From: Patescibacteria group bacterium UBA2196 | GTDB taxonomy: Bacteria; Patescibacteriota; Patescibacteriia; UBA2196 | Assembly (NCBI GenBank): GCA_002328025.1 | Contig: DCVE01000013.1 | Location: 42,579 to 106,578, forward strand | Length of the DNA stretch: 64,000 nucleotides | Direction of reading: 5' to 3' | In this document: piece by piece, positions 5,617 to 57,357 of the stretch | Layout of the letters: each line of letters opens with the position of its first letter | How positions within the stretch are numbered: position 1 is the first letter of the stretch | Notes under the pieces: generated by a model | Told to the model about the DNA's origin: nothing | The model's input: the letters and a program-made list of their open reading frames with translations, nothing else | The model's database searches: none | Translations under genes and position numbers: made by a program

Positions 5617-5990
5617 AAGGGGTGGGTGAGCAATCGCCCTAATATCCGCTAATTGGTGGATTGTTGGGGAGGAAAGTCCGGACGCCACACAAAGGATAGT
5701 TCTGAAACAGAACCGAGCATAAGAAATACAAGAAAAATAAGTTACGATCGTTTTATTTTTCTTGGTCAATTTTAAAACTCCGAGCAAGCGCCACAGAAAA
5801 TAAACCGCCTTGTTAGTTAAAAGACTCACGAGGTAAGGATGAAACCGCGGTGTAAGAGACCACGCGCTTCTATGGTGACATAGATTTGGGTAAGCCTTAT
5901 CCGGCGCAAGTCCCTTTAAAAGGACGCGTTAGATAGATGATTGCATTCCGTTTAGACGGAAACAGAATCCGGCTTATGATCCCACCCTTT
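5617..5990 (+). ncRNA. rnpB: RNase P RNA (bacterial type A)
   Basis: conserved P4 strands GGAGGAAAGTCCGGAC and AACAGAATCCGGCTTA; terminal P1 pairing AAGGGGTGGG/CCCACCCTT; GC-rich in an AT-rich background; no ORF. Confidence 0.85.
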
Positions 5991-6012
5991 GGATATATAA
6001 GAATTTTAATTT

Positions 6013-10836: not shown

Positions 10837-12522
10837 ATGGAGATATTTAATAAAAACAAAGAAATCGTTGTTTTGTCAATTTTGGCGAGTATTTTTTTTG
10901 TATTTTATTCTTTTTTGCCTTTGGCACAGATTATAAAAAGTGAGGTGCCATTTAGTCAAATTGATTTTAAATTCAATACGCCGGATGAAGTGACTAACTA
11001 TTATTTTACTAAACTTTATTCAAAAACTGGTCAGCTGTATTATGTGGAACCATATAGTTTAATGGCGGGTGGGGTGGTCTTTCCACGTTGGGCTAAGCCA
11101 ATGCAAGAAAAAGTGGTGCCGGGAACTTTTCAGGGATTGATGTTGATTTATGGTGCGTTGGCAAAAGTTTTGAGTACTTGGATAATTCTTTTTTTGACAC
11201 CCTTTTTTGCCGTGTTGGGTGTTGTGTTTTTTTATTTATTGCTTAAATTTTGGTTTGAAAAAAAAACGGCTTTTGTGTCGGCTGTTTTAATGTTTTTATT
11301 TCCTGGCTTTTGGTATTATGCTTCACGTACATTGTTTCATAATGTTTTATTTTTGACCTTGCTCTTGGCGGGACTTTATTTTTTGGTTAATTTATTACAG
11401 ACAGATCCTTTGGGTGAGTACAAATTAAAATCAAAACGTAAATTATTTTTAGCCGTGGCAAGTGGTTTATGTATGGGCGGTGCTTTAATTACACGTTCAT
11501 CAGAGTTTGTGTGGGTGTTTTTAATGGTGGTGGGTATTTTAATTTTTTATCGCAAAAATTTTAAACTTAACTTAAAATATTTAGTCTTGTGTTTTTTATT
11601 TTTTTGTTTATGTGGTGTGCCGGTTTTGCATAACAATAAAATTTTATACGGTTCATACTTGGCTAGTGGCTATTCGCAAATGGTAAGCTCTAATTTGGAA
11701 GATTTAGCGCAAATTAGGCCTATTGGTCTAGTACAAGCGTTATTGTTACCGTTTGGTTTTCACCCACAAGTGATGGTAAACCATGTTTTTGTTAAGTATT
11801 TTTGGCAGCTTTTTTGGCCTTGGGTTTTATTTTTTGTTGGTGGAATGGTTGTATTTTTAAAAAATAAAAAAACTAGTGGACAAAAATTATATTTTTATTT
11901 ATTTTTAGTCACTGGATATTTAATGCCATATTATGGGTCTTGGTTTTTTCAAGATAGTGTTAATCCATACTCAGTTAGTATTGGCTCATCTTATATTCGT
12001 TATTTTTTACCACTATTTATTTTGGCTTTGCCATTTGTTGCTTTGATGTTAATTAAGATTTCTGAGATTATAAAAATTAAAAATAAGAAAGTTGTTTTAG
12101 TCGGTTTAATTTTATTCCTGATTGTTTTGGCTGCTAATTTGGTTTATTTTAGTGGGGAAGAAAATTTGATTGCCATAAAAAACAATCTTTTAATTTATCG
12201 TTTACAAGCTCAAGATGTGGTAAATAAAACCCAACCGAGTGATATAATTTTGATGGATGTTTCTAATGATAAAGTTGTTTTTCCAGAAAGACAACATGTG
12301 GTGGTGCCACAGGGTGGGAACGAACTTTTTATGGTGAGCCGTCTTTTAAAAGTAACAGGGGTTTATTTTTTTTATCGTTCGTCCGAAGTCGATCCAACAT
12401 ATTTGAATCAAACGAAGTTTAATCCTTATAATTTAGAAATTTATGATGGGCAAGAAATTAAGGGTGGAGGAATTTTGTTTAAGGTACAACAAAGGGCAGA
12501 ATATTATGTTTTAAATAAGTAG
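10837..12522 (+). CDS. polytopic membrane protein, GT-C fold glycosyltransferase-like
   Basis: 561 aa with more than 10 TM helices; glycosylation-cluster context. Confidence 0.55.
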   Translation: MEIFNKNKEIVVLSILASIFFVFYSFLPLAQIIKSEVPFSQIDFKFNTPDEVTNYYFTKLYSKTGQLYYVEPYSLMAGGVVFPRWAKPMQEKVVPGTFQGLMLIYGALAKVLSTWIILFLTPFFAVLGVVFFYLLLKFWFEKKTAFVSAVLMFLFPGFWYYASRTLFHNVLFLTLLLAGLYFLVNLLQTDPLGEYKLKSKRKLFLAVASGLCMGGALITRSSEFVWVFLMVVGILIFYRKNFKLNLKYLVLCFLFFCLCGVPVLHNNKILYGSYLASGYSQMVSSNLEDLAQIRPIGLVQALLLPFGFHPQVMVNHVFVKYFWQLFWPWVLFFVGGMVVFLKNKKTSGQKLYFYLFLVTGYLMPYYGSWFFQDSVNPYSVSIGSSYIRYFLPLFILALPFVALMLIKISEIIKIKNKKVVLVGLILFLIVLAANLVYFSGEENLIAIKNNLLIYRLQAQDVVNKTQPSDIILMDVSNDKVVFPERQHVVVPQGGNELFMVSRLLKVTGVYFFYRSSEVDPTYLNQTKFNPYNLEIYDGQEIKGGGILFKVQQRAEYYVLNK

Positions 12523-26193: not shown

Positions 26194-28139
26194 AAAAAAT
26201 AAAATTTTATATTAATAATAAAGAATATACTGCTTTGGAAAATGATTCTGTTTTGGACGTGGCTTTACGAGAAGGACTAAATGTTCCGCATTTGTGTAAA
26301 CATCCGGATTTGGCCATTAAAGGTAATTGTCGTTTGTGTTTGGTACAAGTGGAAAATAAAGGTGTGGTGACAGCCTGTTCGACTGTGGTGGAAAAAGGGA
26401 TGCAAATTTTTTTAGAAACCGAAGAAGTTAAAAGCTTACGCAAGACAAATTTGGAGCTTATTTTTTCTGAACATCAGGAAAAGTGTGCCACTTGTTTGTA
26501 CCAAGATAATTGTCAAATATTAAAATATGCAGCTGAATTTGGTATAAAAATTTCGCGTTTTGAAGACAGAAAAAAACATTATTCAACCTGGCAGTTTGGT
26601 GATTCCATACGGTTTGATAGTTCTAAATGTATTGATTGTCGAAATTGTGTGGAAGTTTGCGATAAACAAGCCTGTAGTTTTTATGAAATTGCAGAAAGAG
26701 GAGTTGAAACAATCATTAAACCCAAAGGAGAAGTTGGTGGAATTACCTCCCCCCACCCCCTCCTTCTAAAGGAGGGGAGCTTAGATCTGTTAAAAAATGA
26801 TGTAGATAAATTTGATTGTACTTATTGTGGGCAATGTGTGACACATTGTCCGGTGGGAGCAATTAGCGGGGTATCGCATTGGGAGGAAGTTGAAAAATTA
26901 TTAAAAGATCGAGCTGGAAAAATTTTGGTTGTTGAAATTGCTCCGTCTATTCGTGTCTCTATTGGTGAAGAGTTTAATGAACCATACGGTAAGATTGTGA
27001 CTGGGCAATTAGCGGCTTCTATGAAAGCTTTGGGGTTTGATTATGCTTTTGATGTCAATTTGGGTGCCGATTTTACCACTTATGAGGAAGCACAAGAAGT
27101 GGTGGAAATGGTTTTGAATAATAAATCGCGTCCATTATTTACTTCGTGTTGTCCGGCGTGGGTAAAATTTGTTGAATTTTATTATCCGGAATTTATTGCC
27201 CATTTGACTAGTGCTAATTCACCGCACATGTGTTCTGGACCAATTATTAAAACCTATTTTGCCGATTATTTAAAAAAAGATCCACGCGATATTGTGGTGG
27301 TTTCAATTATGCCGTGTACCTCAAAAAAACATGAAATTAATTTAGAGACGCACACCATTGATTTGGGTTGGTGTTTGGAAAGATTGGATTTACCTAACAT
27401 TAAAAATATTTGTCCGGATAGAAAACAACTACAGGGCGTAAAAATAAAAGCCGTGGATTATGTTTTAACCACGCGTGAATACGCCCATCTTTTGCATAAA
27501 CACAAGATTGATTTATCAAAACTTAAAGCAGAAAAATTAGACAAACCTTTGGGCGTCTATTCTGGTGCCGGAGCAATTTATGGCGCGACCGGTGGAGTTA
27601 TGGAATCAGCTCTTAGAAGCGCGGATTATTTTTTCCGAGTCTGGGATGAAACCGATTCATTAAAATCAGTGGTCAAAGGAGAAAATTATAAATTGAAAAA
27701 GAAAAGATTTTCTAAATTATTACAAAGTCGCATTGAGTTTAAAGAAGTGCGTGGTCAAAATGGAATTAAAGAAGCCAGGGTAAAGGTGGGGGGGCGTAAG
27801 TTAAATGTTGCGGTCGTTAATGGTTTGGGTAATGCTAAAAAAATTTTGGATGACCTTAAAGCCGGTAAGGTAAAATATGATTATGTGGAGGTTATGGCCT
27901 GCCCGGGTGGTTGTATTGGTGGTGGTGGTCAGCCCATTCCGACTAATTCAAAAATTAGAGCCCAACGCGCCAACGCAGTTTATGAAATTGATAAAAACTT
28001 AGCCATTCGTACAGCTCACGAAAATCCAAGTCTTTTGGAGGTGTATAATAAATATTTTAAGGGTGATAAAGAAATAATTGAAAAAGTTTTACACAGTAAA
28101 TTTAAGGTTAAACAAAAAACAGGATATACGATAGTATAA
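26190..28139 (+). CDS. hydA: [FeFe] hydrogenase catalytic subunit with N-terminal 2Fe-2S and 4Fe-4S ferredoxin domains
   Basis: H-cluster motifs TSCCPAW (L1), MPCTSKKHE (L2), EVMACPGGCIGGGGQP (L3); CIDCRNCVEVC and CTYCGQCVTHCP ferredoxin motifs. Confidence 0.85.
   Translation: MKKIKFYINNKEYTALENDSVLDVALREGLNVPHLCKHPDLAIKGNCRLCLVQVENKGVVTACSTVVEKGMQIFLETEEVKSLRKTNLELIFSEHQEKCATCLYQDNCQILKYAAEFGIKISRFEDRKKHYSTWQFGDSIRFDSSKCIDCRNCVEVCDKQACSFYEIAERGVETIIKPKGEVGGITSPHPLLLKEGSLDLLKNDVDKFDCTYCGQCVTHCPVGAISGVSHWEEVEKLLKDRAGKILVVEIAPSIRVSIGEEFNEPYGKIVTGQLAASMKALGFDYAFDVNLGADFTTYEEAQEVVEMVLNNKSRPLFTSCCPAWVKFVEFYYPEFIAHLTSANSPHMCSGPIIKTYFADYLKKDPRDIVVVSIMPCTSKKHEINLETHTIDLGWCLERLDLPNIKNICPDRKQLQGVKIKAVDYVLTTREYAHLLHKHKIDLSKLKAEKLDKPLGVYSGAGAIYGATGGVMESALRSADYFFRVWDETDSLKSVVKGENYKLKKKRFSKLLQSRIEFKEVRGQNGIKEARVKVGGRKLNVAVVNGLGNAKKILDDLKAGKVKYDYVEVMACPGGCIGGGGQPIPTNSKIRAQRANAVYEIDKNLAIRTAHENPSLLEVYNKYFKGDKEIIEKVLHSKFKVKQKTGYTIV
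26757..26777 (+). repeat. perfect 9-bp palindrome CCCCTCCTT-CTA-AAGGAGGGG inside hydA (in-frame)
   Basis: seen directly; same element as at 41611-41631 in alaS. Confidence 0.6.
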
Positions 28140-40526: not shown

Positions 40527-40665
40527 TATGAAAGAATGTAAATATTGCGGCATGCCACTTAATGACAATGCGCAAGAAAACGTTTGTGACTTTTGTGCGA
40601 ATGACGATGGTAAAGAAATGTTGGCGGTAAATGTGGAAGAGGAAGATTTGGCCGAAGAATTTTAG
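40527..40665 (+). pseudogene. small CxxC...CxxC zinc-ribbon-like ORF interrupted by a 1-nt frameshift (A-run at 40560-40562)
   Basis: frame 0 gives MKECKYCGMPLK*; a +1 shift continues ...NDNAQENVCDFCANDDGKEMLAVNVEEEDLAEEF* ending 9 nt before a strong terminator; bracketed by promoter and terminator. Confidence 0.3.
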
Positions 40666-40765: not shown

Positions 40766-42751
40766 ATGACTTCCAAAGAATTGCGTCAAAGATATATTGA
40801 GTTTTTTAAAAAAAATGGGCATGTAGAAATTCCCAGTGCTTCTTTGATTCCGGAAAATGACCCTTCTATTCTTTTTACCACTGCTGGTATGAGTCCACTC
40901 GTGCCATTTCTTTTAGGTGAAAAACATCCGGCTGGCAATAAATTAGTTAATTCGCAAAAATGTATTAGAACAGGTGACATTGATGGTGTTGGTGATGCTT
41001 GCCACCATACTTTTTTTGAAATGTTGGGTCATTGGAGTTTGAATGATTATTTTAAAACTGAAGCCATTGAATTGACTTATAAATTTATTACTGAAGATTT
41101 AAAAATAGATCAAAAATATCTGGCCGTTTCTGTTTTTGTTGGAGATAATGATGCGCCGTTTGATGCCGAAAGTTATCAAAAATGGCAAGAGCTGGGTTTT
41201 TCTGAAAAAAGAATTACTAAATTACCCAAAAAAGATAATTGGTGGGAATTGCCTGGAAATTCTGGGCCGTGTGGGCCAGATACAGAAATGTTTTATTGGA
41301 CTGGGGACAAAAATTCTGTGCCAGAAGTTTTTGATCCGCAAAATAAAAATTGGGTAGAAATTGGCAATGATGTTTTGATGCAATATGAAAAAATTGGCGA
41401 AAACAAATATCAACCTGCCAAACAAAAAAATATTGATAATGGCACAGGTTTGGAAAGACTTTTAGCAGTTATGAACGGTCTTGATGATAATTATCAAACA
41501 GATTTATTTTTACCAATAATTGAGGAAATTGAAAAGTTAAGCGGGAAAAAATATACCCCTCTGTCCGCAGTAGCGGACTCCTCCCCTTATCAAGGGGAGG
41601 ATAAGAACATCCCCTCCTTTCTAAGGAGGGGCCTCACGACGGAGTCGGAGGGGGAGATAAAATCAATGCGTATTATCGCCGACCATTTGCGCGCGGCCAC
41701 TTTTATCATGGCTGATCCGGCTGGTATTGCGCCTTCAAACACAGATCAAGGCTATGTGGTTAGAAAGTTAATTCGTCGAGCTATTCGTCATGGTAAATTA
41801 ATTGGCATTGATCAGAATTTTTGTGTTGAAATTGCTGAAGTAGTAATTAATAATATGCAGGATATTTATGCAGAACTAGAAACTAATAAAAAATTTGTTT
41901 TAGATAATATAAATTTAGAAGAAGAAAAATTTAGAAAAACATTGCAAGACGGAGAAAAGAAATTAAATAAAATTTTTGATAAGGTTGAAATATTTGAAGA
42001 AATGGAGGAAGGTGACAAACTAGAAACTTATAATTTTGCTGATTACAGTGGTTTAGGTAAAGACTTTTTTGTCTTATCTTCCGAATATGGTTATCCTTTG
42101 GAATTAAGTTTAGAAGCTTTGGATGAAAAAAAAGAGAGATTAGGTGATGGTAAAATACCAAAAGAGGAAAAAGAAAAAATACAACGGAAATTTGATGATT
42201 TTAAAGAAAAAGTGATTAAAAGTTATAATATTGAAATGCAAAAACATCAAGATCTTTCGCGCACTGCCAGCGCTGGCAAATTTAAAGGTGGCTTAGCCAA
42301 TCAAAGCGAAATGGCTGTTAAATACCATACTGTTTCGCATTTATTATTGCAAGCTTTAAGAATGGTCTTGGGCGAACATGTTTTTCAAAAAGGTTCTAAC
42401 ATTACCGACGAAAGATTGCGTTCAGATTTTTCTCATGGGGGAAAAATGACACCAGAACAAATTGTCCAAGTTGAAAACATAGTTAATGAACAAATACAAA
42501 AAAATTTAACAGTCGAATGTAATGAAATGAGTTTAGATGAAGCTAAAAATCAAGGCGCCATGGGAGTTTTTGCCAATAAATATGGTGAGCGAGTTAAGGT
42601 ATACACAGTTGGCGATGACCATTTTTGTTTTTCTAAAGAAATTTGTGGCGGACCACATGTAAAGAATACTGGCGAATTAGGCCATTTAAAAATAATAAAA
42701 GAGGAGGCCAGTTCAGCGGGCGTCAGAAGAATTAAAGCAATTTTAGAATAA
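40766..42751 (+). CDS. alaS: alanine--tRNA ligase (short form: catalytic plus editing domains, no C-Ala domain)
   Basis: class II motifs (FTTAGM, HHTFFEMLGHWS); editing-domain HxxxH / CGGPHV; only 661 aa; ~100-nt GC-rich palindromic insertion. Confidence 0.85.
   Translation: MTSKELRQRYIEFFKKNGHVEIPSASLIPENDPSILFTTAGMSPLVPFLLGEKHPAGNKLVNSQKCIRTGDIDGVGDACHHTFFEMLGHWSLNDYFKTEAIELTYKFITEDLKIDQKYLAVSVFVGDNDAPFDAESYQKWQELGFSEKRITKLPKKDNWWELPGNSGPCGPDTEMFYWTGDKNSVPEVFDPQNKNWVEIGNDVLMQYEKIGENKYQPAKQKNIDNGTGLERLLAVMNGLDDNYQTDLFLPIIEEIEKLSGKKYTPLSAVADSSPYQGEDKNIPSFLRRGLTTESEGEIKSMRIIADHLRAATFIMADPAGIAPSNTDQGYVVRKLIRRAIRHGKLIGIDQNFCVEIAEVVINNMQDIYAELETNKKFVLDNINLEEEKFRKTLQDGEKKLNKIFDKVEIFEEMEEGDKLETYNFADYSGLGKDFFVLSSEYGYPLELSLEALDEKKERLGDGKIPKEEKEKIQRKFDDFKEKVIKSYNIEMQKHQDLSRTASAGKFKGGLANQSEMAVKYHTVSHLLLQALRMVLGEHVFQKGSNITDERLRSDFSHGGKMTPEQIVQVENIVNEQIQKNLTVECNEMSLDEAKNQGAMGVFANKYGERVKVYTVGDDHFCFSKEICGGPHVKNTGELGHLKIIKEEASSAGVRRIKAILE
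41560..41660 (+). repeat. GC-rich palindromic insertion in alaS (hairpins at 41564-41577, 41580-41600, 41611-41631)
   Basis: CCTCCCCTT-ATC-AAGGGGAGG and CCCCTCCTT-TCT-AAGGAGGGG perfect 9-bp stems; in-frame (…SAVADSSPYQGEDKNIPSFLRRGLTTESEGEIKS…). Confidence 0.55.
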
Positions 42752-52754: not shown

Positions 52755-52776
52755 ACGGCGACCTGGCGATCGCCGT
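52755..52776. terminator. bidirectional hairpin terminator between convergent genes
   Basis: ACGGCGA-CCTGGCGA-TCGCCGT flanked by A-run and T/A-run. Confidence 0.45.
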
Positions 52777-54325: not shown

Positions 54326-54397
54326 GCCCCCATCGTCTAATGGTTAGGACACATGGTTCTCAGCCATGTAATTGGGGTTCGATTCCCCATAGGGGTA
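54326..54397 (+). tRNA. tRNA-Glu (anticodon CUC)
   Basis: cloverleaf by eye: D-stem GTCT/GGAC; anticodon stem CATGG/CCATG with loop TTCTCAG; T-arm TGGGG-TTCGATT-CCCCA; acceptor has one C-A mismatch and a G-U pair; CCA not encoded. Confidence 0.65.
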
Positions 54398-56268: not shown

Positions 56269-57357
56269 ATGAAAATTTTATTTGCTGGCGGCGGAACCAT
56301 GGGTTCGGTATCACCACTGCTGGCTATGGGTCAAAAAATTAAAACAGAACTTAATCAGCGCAATCAAGTTGCGGAATTTTTGTGGTTGGGAACCAAAAAC
56401 GGGCCCGAGAGGGAAGTGGTAGAAAAAAATAATATACGATTTTTGGTCATAGCGGCCGGCAAATTGCGACGTTATTTTGATTGGCGTAATGTGTTGGATG
56501 GTTTTAATATTTTTATGGCTATGTGGCAAAGTTTTTTTATTTTAATAAAATTTCGGCCGCAAGTTATTTTAACAGCTGGTTCTTTTGTGGCTGTGCCAGT
56601 GGCGGTGGTGGGTTGGATTTTGGGCATCCCAGTTTTTGTGCACCAGCAAGATGTTGAGTTTGGTTTGGCTAATAAAATTATGGCTTTTTTTGCCAAGAAA
56701 ATTACCGTGGCTTTGGAAAAATCTAGATGTGATTTTCCAGCTAGGAAAACATTTTTGGTTGGAAATCCTATTCGTCAATTTTCAAATAAATTTCAAATTT
56801 TAAATCTAAAATTTCAAAACACCTTGCCAACCATTTTAATTCTTGGTGGCGGAACCGGGGCTTTAGCTGTTAATGAACTGGTTTGGAATTCTTTAGAAGA
56901 ATTAACAAAATTTTGTAATATAATTCATGTAACTGGAAAATACAAAGCAATTAATAATGAGTCTGAAATTACCTGCCTTGCCGGTAGGCAGGTGAATTAT
57001 AAAGAAAATTATAAATCTTTTGAATTTTTAAATGAAGAAATGTTTGAAGTCATGCAAAATTCTGAACTGGTAATTTCTCGTGCTGGCATGGGTTTTTTAA
57101 CCGAGCTAGCATATTTTAGTAAGCCAACCATTATTATCCCGATGCCCAAGACGCACCAAGAAGCCAATGCAAAATATTTTGACGCTAAAAATGCGGGCGT
57201 ATATTTGCGACAGACAGAATTGACACCAAAAATTTTTGTGACGGAAATACACACTCTGTTAGATGATGAAAATAAGAAAAAAGATATGGGGAAAAATATG
57301 CATAATATTTTTATTGATTATAGTGGAGAAAAATTTTTGGCAGAAATTTTAAATTAA
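56269..57357 (+). CDS. murG: undecaprenyldiphospho-muramoylpentapeptide beta-N-acetylglucosaminyltransferase
   Basis: MKILFAGGGTMGSVSPLLA; GGGTGA C-terminal motif; GT28 architecture. Confidence 0.85.
   Translation: MKILFAGGGTMGSVSPLLAMGQKIKTELNQRNQVAEFLWLGTKNGPEREVVEKNNIRFLVIAAGKLRRYFDWRNVLDGFNIFMAMWQSFFILIKFRPQVILTAGSFVAVPVAVVGWILGIPVFVHQQDVEFGLANKIMAFFAKKITVALEKSRCDFPARKTFLVGNPIRQFSNKFQILNLKFQNTLPTILILGGGTGALAVNELVWNSLEELTKFCNIIHVTGKYKAINNESEITCLAGRQVNYKENYKSFEFLNEEMFEVMQNSELVISRAGMGFLTELAYFSKPTIIIPMPKTHQEANAKYFDAKNAGVYLRQTELTPKIFVTEIHTLLDDENKKKDMGKNMHNIFIDYSGEKFLAEILN

Follow-up and report, generated by a model that had tools for sequence, protein, structure and literature searches.

The subject of this analysis is a GC-rich palindromic segment lying inside alaS, the alanine--tRNA ligase gene, in a 64,000-nucleotide stretch of contig DCVE01000013.1 of Patescibacteria group bacterium UBA2196 (called the window below, always in its full length). 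Segment 41554-41659 is, in our judgment, probably a tail-to-tail pair of non-coding repeats with the intrastrand-triplex architecture of the BoxC/PIT/TM_ECO kind, inserted in frame and translated passively. Each of the two elements, A and B, would consist of a perfect pyrimidine/purine hairpin, a connector (3 nt in most members of the family, a spacer hairpin in alaS) and a 9-nt G/T(A) mirror box. The latter would be a third strand which, when the DNA is single-stranded, folds back and lies antiparallel along the purine arm. The features concerned are the following:

40766-42751, plus strand: alaS, encoding a 661-residue alanine--tRNA ligase of the short Patescibacteria type (open reading frame, Pfam domains and homologue names)
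41554-41562, minus strand: mirror box, the putative third strand, of element A, reading AGAGGGGTA on the minus strand and fitting at 8 of 9 positions the GGWGGGGWW expected for purine arm AAGGGGAGG
41563-41578, minus strand: spacer hairpin of element A, GTCCGC-AGTA-GCGGAC, with a 6-bp stem, between the box and the main hairpin (predicted folds)
41579-41601, minus strand: main hairpin of element A, TCCTCCCCTT-ATC-AAGGGGAGGA, with pyrimidine and purine arms, a perfect 10-bp stem and a 3-nt loop
41602-41610, plus strand: 9-nt linker TAAGAACAT between elements A and B
41611-41631, plus strand: main hairpin of element B, CCCCTCCTT-TCT-AAGGAGGGG, the canonical stem of the family, perfect over 9 bp, with a 3-nt loop
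41632-41650, plus strand: spacer hairpin of element B, CCTCaCGAC-GGA-GTCGGAG (predicted folds)
41651-41659, plus strand: mirror box, the putative third strand, of element B, GGGGAGATA, fitting GGGGWGGWW at 8 of 9 positions
26744-26777, minus strand: a complete single element in hydA, CCCCTCCTT-TAG-AAGGAGGGG-GTGG-GGGGAGGTA, translated as ..TSPHPLLLKEGS..

Segment 41554-41659 thus runs TACCCCTCT / GTCCGC-AGTA-GCGGAC / TCCTCCCCTT-ATC-AAGGGGAGGA / TAAGAACAT / CCCCTCCTT-TCT-AAGGAGGGG / CCTCaCGAC-GGA-GTCGGAG / GGGGAGATA. An earlier sequence-only reading of the window had noticed here a GC-rich palindromic insertion of about 100 nt composed of three consecutive hairpins. Sequence, GC content, shuffles and folds all agree with such an insertion, and the in-frame translation that it quoted is correct. 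Its two long hairpins are perfect as described; its first one is properly GTCCGC-AGTA-GCGGAC, with 6 bp, and a fourth small hairpin, CGAC-GGA-GTCG, had been missed. The three hairpins are not independent units: they belong to two composites, in both of which a spacer hairpin separates a mirror box from a pyrimidine/purine hairpin. The first two always travel together because both are parts of element A, whose spacer and main hairpin are found jointly in the window and in L001, L005, L127 and L129. The main stem of element A is the same in L001, and its loop-closing pair changes from T-A to A-T in L005 and L129; its box is kept in L001 and more decayed in L005. A near-identical spacer of element B exists in L032 (tgcctcgacggagtcgggc, followed by GGGGTGGTT). 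The tail-to-tail arrangement, with the boxes outside, recurs in the dimers of L053, L063, L089 and L121. In alaS the two outer boxes are mutually complementary (CCCCTC...GAGGGG), and by pairing with each other they form the closing stem of the predicted fold.

Local GC content reaches 55-56% at the insert, against 35% in the 64-kb window. Neither long-hairpin pattern was matched in 100 dinucleotide-preserving shuffles, even with 2 mismatches allowed, which excludes a chance origin of the hairpins. When all 64 kb were scanned for perfect stems with a minimum of 7 bp and of 5 G/C pairs, five came up, these three and two unrelated ones. The unrelated pair, at 56971-56993 and 52755-52776 (ACCTGCCT-TGCCGGT-AGGCAGGT and ACGGCGA-CCTGGCGA-TCGCCGT, respectively), lacks pyrimidine/purine arms.

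The stem of element B belongs to a large family. A scan of 185,579 genomes, one per species, for CCCCTCCTT-N3-AAGGAGGGG gave listed matches amounting to at least 120 loci and at least 145 copies, to which the following family statistics refer. The hosts include Bacteroidota, Nitrospirota, Acidobacteriota, Gammaproteobacteria (among them Thiomargarita), Chlamydiota, Planctomycetota and Patescibacteria; in the phyla other than Patescibacteria, most copies occupy short non-coding stretches. A GGGG[T/A]GG box stands within 45 nt to one side of 120 of the 145 canonical hairpins. The gap between the box and the hairpin base is mostly 2-7 nt (mode 3) and otherwise 12-34 nt, in which case it mostly spans a self-contained stem-loop. 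Of the 58 spacers with a length of 10-40 nt, 49 are predicted to form 4 bp or more, usually as end-to-end stem-loops of diverse sequence (for example T-GGCGC-GAA-GCGCC and T-G-CAGCCG-CTT-CGGCTG-AC), and the mean minimum free energy of the 58 is -4.5 kcal/mol vs -1.4 kcal/mol for shuffles.

Read backwards, the purine arm 5'-AAGGAGGGG-3' yields exactly the box 5'-GGGGTGGTT-3', each A standing there as T or as A. The same mirror relation holds for other arms:

purine arm AAGGGGAGG: box GGTGGGGT
purine arm GGGAGAGGG: box GGGTGAGGG
purine arm AAAGGGGGA: box AGGGGGATTT
purine arm AAGGGGGAGA: box AGAGGGGGTT
purine arm AAGGAGGAG: box GAGGTGGTT

Altogether, 190 of 229 pyrimidine/purine hairpins carry their own mirror box, whereas a non-reversed control box accompanies 62 of 215. 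Stem classes crossed with box classes give a diagonal matrix: the stem's own box and the canonical one have frequencies of 0.80 and 0.20 with GGGGAGG stems, and of 1.00 and 0.00 with GAGAGGG stems. The rule is also obeyed in L171 (stem AAGGAGAGGG, box GGGTGAGGT) and in L170 (box AACCACCCC plus a spacer hairpin). The box covaries with the stem, in the manner that an intrastrand triplex of the purine motif would predict. Judged by sequence, a pyrimidine arm, a purine arm and an antiparallel G/T strand make up the design of G.G-C, T.A-T and A.A-T triplets.

Viruses carry the family as well. The canonical hairpin occurs in IMG/VR as 50 copies on 28 viral contigs, 47 of them with a box and up to six on one contig of 23.6 kb. 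In the viral contigs L142, L143 and L166 mirror boxes often flank both sides of the hairpin (CCACCCCtat-hairpin-aaaaaGGGGAGGTT), so that either strand could adopt the purine-type fold. Viral contigs are a possible route of spread between hosts.

Several loci met in the course of the scan deserve mention in their own right. A Thiomargarita metagenome-assembled genome holds seven canonical elements within 1.5 kb (L075:5892-7312), including a head-to-tail array with a 41-nt period (CCCCTCCTTACCAAGGAGGGGTTGGGGGTGGTTAAGTTCCT). On a Nitrospirales chromosome (L046:5211-6260) a repeat unit of about 275 nt occurs four times, each unit with two different triplex-type elements, TCCCCCTTT/AAAGGGGGA with AGGGGGATTT, and CCCCTCTTT/AAAGAGGGG. 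In L014, an element copy lies inside the longest stop-free frame crossing it, which counts 2265 codons.

These properties recall those of the E. coli BoxC sequences (Bachellier, 1990s), which were re-described by Hoyne et al. 2000 as PIT ('potential intrastrand triplex') and later as TM_ECO (Holder et al. 2015, PMC4666352). With the consensus CCCTCNCCC N3-6 GGGNGAGGG N3 GGGNGAGGG, TM_ECO belongs to the intrastrand triplexes of the purine motif, class II, and its triplex was observed in vitro by circular dichroism (CD) and nuclear magnetic resonance (NMR). It is abundant in many bacteria and tied to locally variable genome regions and local genome instability; in E. coli it is always intergenic and unlinked to transposons, phages or plasmids (PMC4666352). 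Like BoxC/PIT/TM_ECO, the elements studied here line up on one strand a pyrimidine arm, the purine arm that pairs with it and a mirrored G/T(A) block (class II; class I on the opposite strand). Common to both are also a connector of about 3 nt, a multi-copy and highly conserved nature, frequent inverted pairs and residence in locally variable regions. Copies of the TM_ECO type (CCCTCTCCC / GGGAGAGGG / GGGTGAGGG) are present in the same loci as the CCCCTCCTT type. Both alaS hairpins and that of hydA possess complementary homopyrimidine and homopurine blocks of at least 8 nt around a short loop, and a mirrored block of G and T/A containing no more than a single mismatch (9/9 in hydA, 8/9 in each of A and B).

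They differ from TM_ECO in several respects. The stems are CCCCTCCTT / AAGGAGGGG / GGGGTGGTT and CCTCCCCTT / AAGGGGAGG / GGTGGGGT, which do not conform to the TM_ECO consensus. Many copies, including both alaS elements, have a spacer hairpin of 12-34 nt as loop 2; the three window copies are not intergenic, and copies lie in frame within conserved genes; 28 viral contigs carry them, and their range extends far beyond Proteobacteria and Cyanobacteria. For the second loop, the published limits are 1-6 nt (ITxF) and 0-10 nt (Hoyne et al.) (PMC4666352). The 4 nt of hydA fall within them, and the alaS connectors of 16 and 19 nt are beyond them and fold as closed hairpins. A closed spacer hairpin would be geometrically equivalent to a short second loop, and this variant is common across the family. 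Thus, going by its sequence design, the kind of element is already known as BoxC/PIT/TM intrastrand-triplex repeats, and the stems described here are different subfamilies of it.

We infer the triplex fold of these elements from the covariation of box and stem together with the published CD and NMR data on TM_ECO. It is unlikely, in our view, that the family and the insertion are as described and that the mirror box is no third strand, the elements being REP-like hairpins whose box serves protein binding or recombination or forms a G-quadruplex. Such a reading can draw on the four G-runs contained in purine arm plus box, on the REP-like GTAG palindromes that L003 and L004 carry at this alaS site (see below), on spacer hairpins of up to 34 nt, outside published triplex definitions, and on the fact that the triplex is argued for this stem type by analogy. 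What speaks against it is that, in mirror order, the box has T or A wherever the purine arm has A; such tracking is a prediction of reverse-Hoogsteen pairing, and not of a G-quadruplex or of a fixed site for a protein. Moreover, the connector is either of about 3 nt or a closed stem-loop that returns the box to the base of the hairpin, and TM_ECO, of the same architecture, does form a triplex in vitro (PMC4666352). A G-quadruplex of purine arm plus box was also considered by itself and dropped, as the A/T positions covary in mirror order.

Turning to the host gene, AlaS matches two Pfam domains, tRNA-synt_2c (residues 5-501) and tRNA_SAD (610-656), the latter being the sole editing-related match. 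Its homologues are named alanine--tRNA ligase of Patescibacteria, Kuenenbacteria or Falkowbacteria. In an alignment of 26 orthologues, the stretch from 'LSGKKY' to 'SMRIIADH' counts 36 residues in the window protein vs about 7 in many others, i.e. about 28 extra in-frame codons relative to insert-free orthologues. The Aquifex aeolicus alanyl-tRNA synthetase (AlaRS) structure 1RIQ aligns as two blocks, query residues 2-264 and 300-492. Residues 265-299 correspond to a 7-residue loop (259-265 in 1RIQ), and the insert is missing from solved AlaRS structures. The indel supposed in the sequence-only reading is thus confirmed. Its location is not: instead of separating the catalytic and editing domains, the site lies within tRNA-synt_2c, directly after the motif-3 helix, and by comparison with 1RIQ at the start of the tRNA-recognition helical subdomain. 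AlphaFold2 gives a predicted local distance difference test (pLDDT) score below 50 for residues 269-292, while 10-residue blocks of the flanking helices 249-259 and 293-316 average about 90-95; the loop encoded by the insert is predicted to be disordered. On these alignments, the insert is a true in-frame insertion in a permissive surface loop. The linker TAAGAACAT probably holds remnants of the native loop (..GEDKN..), to judge from 'GEDKEQTK' in the insert-free orthologue P0028.

The arms, made of C/T or A/G only, could persist in coding DNA since pure-pyrimidine and pure-purine blocks would hold no stop codon on either strand. They would encode Pro/Ser/Leu/Phe and Lys/Glu/Gly/Arg, suited to a flexible loop. 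A six-frame check found arms and boxes stop-free in all six frames; this does not extend to loops and spacers, the whole 105-nt insert being open solely in the frame used by alaS. The tryptic peptides predicted from it are YTPLSAVADSSPYQGEDK and NIPSFLR.

A second variable region of AlaS is found at window positions 41970-42250 (residues ~403-490; KIFDKVEIFEEMEEGDKLETYNFADYSGLGKDFF...KIPKEEKEKIQRKFDDFKEK). It is shared by the window, P0002, P0006 and P0068 and replaced by a short linker in P0003, P0004 and others; this patchy spread disagrees with overall similarity.

Among orthologous loci, the alaS loop of interest here is occupied as follows:

window, L001, L002 and L127: elements A and B
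L005 and L129 (Kuenenbacteria-like, with AlaS about 60% identical): only element A
L170: a canonical element with a different spacer, AACCACCCC..TGCCCC-TGC-GGGGCA..CCCCTCCTT-GAA-AAGGAGGGG
L171: an element with a CCCTCTCCTT stem and box GGGTGAGGT, fitting the mirror rule
L003 (4827-4862) and L004 (1145-1176): a 36-nt GTAG...CTAC palindrome, TTTTGTAGAGACGCAA-GATT-TTGCGTCTCTACAAAA, with a 16-bp stem
L006: empty

Most of these elements begin 0-2 nt from the Tyr codon of 'KKY'; in L005 and L129 extra residues precede element A. The palindrome of L003 and L004 is translated as ..VETQDFASLQ.., and its clean removal leaves the native linker of 7 residues. That one site has been filled independently speaks for a loop which tolerates elements and in which they were inserted and replaced more than once, and it is from this occupancy by different elements that we deduce a probable mobility of the alaS elements. 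For the window, L001, L003 and L004, a single gain of the A+B pair followed by vertical descent is conceivable, their pairwise identities of 79-83% leaving the tree unclear; it fails to explain L170 and L171, which hold different elements. L171 also has intergenic triplex-type elements immediately upstream and downstream of alaS, besides its in-frame copy (L171:9871-9893, 11954-11974, 12047-12067).

The inserts are better conserved than the gene that carries them. Between the window and L001, nucleotide identity is 91.7% in the insert and 79.2% in the gene, and third codon positions agree at 33/36 in the insert vs 64% in the gene (p = 2e-4). The corresponding values are 15/19 (79%) vs 45% for the window and L005 (p = 3e-3), and 19/19 vs 70% for L003 and L004 (p = 1e-3). 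The inserts of the window and L001 differ at ~10 positions, all of them outside the two long stems, and one loop changes from TCT to TAG. Such conservation of third positions points to constraint at the DNA rather than the protein level. It indicates that the inserts are under nucleotide-level constraint or share a more recent ancestry than the gene. The perfect stems may be maintained not by protein function but at the DNA level, through selection for structure or through correction templated by the hairpin, and presumably the elements give AlaRS no function.

The hydA copy, in an [FeFe]-hydrogenase gene, is a complete element. It agrees at 9/9 mirror positions, with loops of 3 and 4 nt and a hairpin at 26757-26777 with a 9-bp stem. 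This stem is identical to that of the third hairpin of the sequence-only reading, from which, as had been noticed, the copy differs in the loop only (TCT in alaS vs CTA in hydA). All three window copies are inside open reading frames with Pfam support on both sides. The hydA site is hypervariable among HydA orthologues: distant ones lack the insert, and closer ones display different peptide footprints of other palindromic repeats. This hotspot (window 26700-26800; orthologues P0121-P0152) is a loop between two ferredoxin-type clusters, and the footprints CHPELVSGS...KQVRHD and IPAKAGTP...DPRFREDD resemble translations of other widespread palindromic repeat families.

In-frame residence extends to other genes, again with Pfam matches on either side. 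It was seen in Patescibacteria in the genes of MgsA/RarA (L043), Lgt (L047), a beta-CASP RNase (L055), TsaE (L056), UDP-glucose dehydrogenase (L106) and MnmA (L005, three hairpins), and further in that of a glycosyltransferase of family GT2 (L095, labelled Nitrospinota). The stem is used in all three frames, as PLLxKEG (hydA, L170), PSxxRRG (alaS, L043) and PPxxGGG (L056). One and the same stem is read as PLLLKEG in hydA and PSFLRRG in alaS, in support of a family acting at the DNA level. The earlier suggestion of a mobile or repeat family stands as regards a repeat family acting at that level, and the family is pan-bacterial rather than local.

Could the insert work in the messenger RNA? A stable multi-hairpin with two Shine-Dalgarno (SD)-like arms (AAGGAGG) would then pause ribosomes and regulate alaS translation, or stabilise the transcript. 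The predicted RNA fold is indeed strong, at -59 kcal/mol (z = -5.9), that of the DNA being -33 kcal/mol (z = -7.0), and shuffles were never as stable. In addition, stems are conserved while loops vary, and it is well established that purine arms of this type match the SD consensus and pyrimidine arms the anti-SD. We nevertheless hold this role to be quite improbable. No Rfam family was found for the insert, neither by a permissive search of 41300-41900 nor at the gathering threshold over the whole window, and the insert sequence offers no ATG, GTG or TTG at a usable distance after either SD-like arm. Orthologues cope without the insert or with unrelated elements at the site. Identical elements elsewhere are mostly intergenic, in either orientation in other phyla, and occur also in phages. 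Finally, RNA is reported not to adopt triplexes of the purine motif (PMC4666352), and an mRNA role leaves the conserved box unexplained. A tRNA-like cloverleaf, suggested by the closing stem and the four hairpins, was ruled out by the Rfam null result.

Still at the level of the product, the insert could be an adaptive, lineage-specific AlaRS loop, touching for instance the tRNA or a partner, with incidental palindromy. The frame is kept, the amino acids of the window protein resemble those of P0003 and P0004, and the position at the start of the tRNA-recognition subdomain would suit such contacts. We regard this as highly improbable in view of a loop that is predicted to be disordered and is hypervariable or missing in close relatives, of third codon positions more conserved than the rest of the gene, and of the translation of the same DNA in other frames in other genes. 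As for misassembly, a chimera or a GC-rich palindrome arisen by chance, the window comes from a metagenome-type assembly and hairpins can lead to assembly errors, but 4 contigs of several origins encode exactly this protein, the same insert is found in the independent assemblies L001, L002 and L127 and no shuffle match was obtained, so that its probability is next to nil.

Several observations weigh against a passively translated pair of triplex-type repeats. Both alaS boxes are imperfect (8/9) and the 16- and 19-nt connectors exceed the limits of published triplex finders, so the alaS copies may have lost the ability to form a triplex, or may have lacked it from the start. For the CCCCTCCTT type the triplex is itself an extrapolation from TM_ECO. 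Element A with its spacer was seen, in the metagenome collection, in alaS orthologues only: a scan for spacer plus stem gave 3 matches, namely two alaS orthologues and one GC-rich chance match. It could thus be an old, vertically inherited insertion and not currently mobile DNA. No target-site duplication was resolved at alaS, where L006, the closest empty site, has diverged by 25% and native codons run into the borders of the insert; no population-level empty/filled pair was found, and transposases were not searched for. The 64-kb window holds three copies only. Conservation above the synonymous level could come from recent recombination between lineages, and the six-frame stop-free argument is limited to arms and boxes.

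A broader reading of the same elements is tempting and, we think, doubtful as yet. Triplex-type hairpins would be an active class of mobile DNA across bacteria, possibly phage-carried and able to insert into coding sequence through their pure arms. They would be a major and recurrent source of lineage-specific loop insertions in essential proteins of the gene-dense Patescibacteria, and hotspots such as alaS and hydA would turn over by insertion, replacement and excision.

Comparison with other short palindromic repeats helps to situate the pair of triplex-type repeats in alaS. The Rickettsia palindromic elements (RPE), which Ogata et al. 2000 are said to have described, are reportedly selfish palindromic repeats lying in frame in Rickettsia genes, essential ones included, at surface positions compatible with function. 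They are said to measure 100-150 bp and to be confined to Rickettsia sequence families, in a small and AT-rich host genome. The window elements resemble them by in-frame insertion at coding positions tolerated by the fold. By the description of RPE, they differ in their units of 34-50 nt, their pyrimidine/purine arms and mirror box, and their spread across the bacterial domain. The comparison with RPE made in the sequence-only reading is hence apt as an analogy, for a tolerated loop, and not as kinship, the family being of the intrastrand-triplex (BoxC/PIT/TM) kind. Of the marks of a transposable MITE (terminal inverted repeats, a target-site duplication and a cognate transposase), the alaS pair shows mutually complementary outer boxes, while filled and empty sites have drifted too far apart for a duplication to be made out.

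Yeast mitochondrial GC clusters and the small dispersed repeats of cyanobacteria are likewise short GC-rich hairpins in AT-rich genomes, sometimes in frame and nested; their sequences and hosts are unrelated to those of the window elements, and a triplex-type third block is not known in them. REP/BIME and GTAG-tagged repeats are reported to be 20-40 bp GC-rich hairpins of high copy number, often in inverted pairs (Di Nocera et al. 2013, PMC3733652). The GTAG...CTAC palindrome filling the alaS site in L003 and L004 resembles the GTAG-tagged ones by its GTAG/CTAC ends. The window elements differ by their mirror box and by the lack of a terminal GTAG/CGTC tag, and classic REPs are extragenic by definition.

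The intrastrand-triplex repeats known since BoxC have been described as strictly intergenic; here they are translated in alaS, hydA, mnmA, tsaE, lgt, mgsA and further conserved genes. What appears foremost as novel is this recurrent in-frame residence in conserved and even essential genes, mainly in Patescibacteria here, together with turnover at hotspots. Other features that appear to be new are the CCCCTCCTT and CCTCCCCTT subfamilies and how very widely they are distributed, the spacer hairpin that stands in for loop 2, and the presence on viral contigs. Among open-access papers, nothing relevant was found on in-frame triplex or palindromic insertions in Patescibacteria. A class of non-B-DNA repeats is thereby linked to the evolution of protein loops, offering a simple source for some unexplained protein insertions in candidate-phyla bacteria. 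The natural filled, empty and replaced sites provide material for working out how the elements move. As for annotation, database peptides such as PLLxKEG, PSxxRRG and NHP...GVV are to be taken as footprints of a DNA element and not as protein motifs.

Two minor observations concern the remainder of the window. Above the Rfam gathering score it contains a class A bacterial RNase P RNA (5618-5992, plus strand, 169.6 bits) and one tRNA (54326-54397, plus strand), and no other match. In the AT-rich spacer upstream of alaS, a 45-residue open reading frame (40528-40665, plus strand) with two CxxC pairs (MKECKYCGMPLNDNAQENVCDFCANDDGKEMLAVNVEEEDLAEEF) probably encodes a small zinc-ribbon protein; it shows one substitution in L001, and open reading frames of 45 residues are called at similar upstream positions in L003 and L171.

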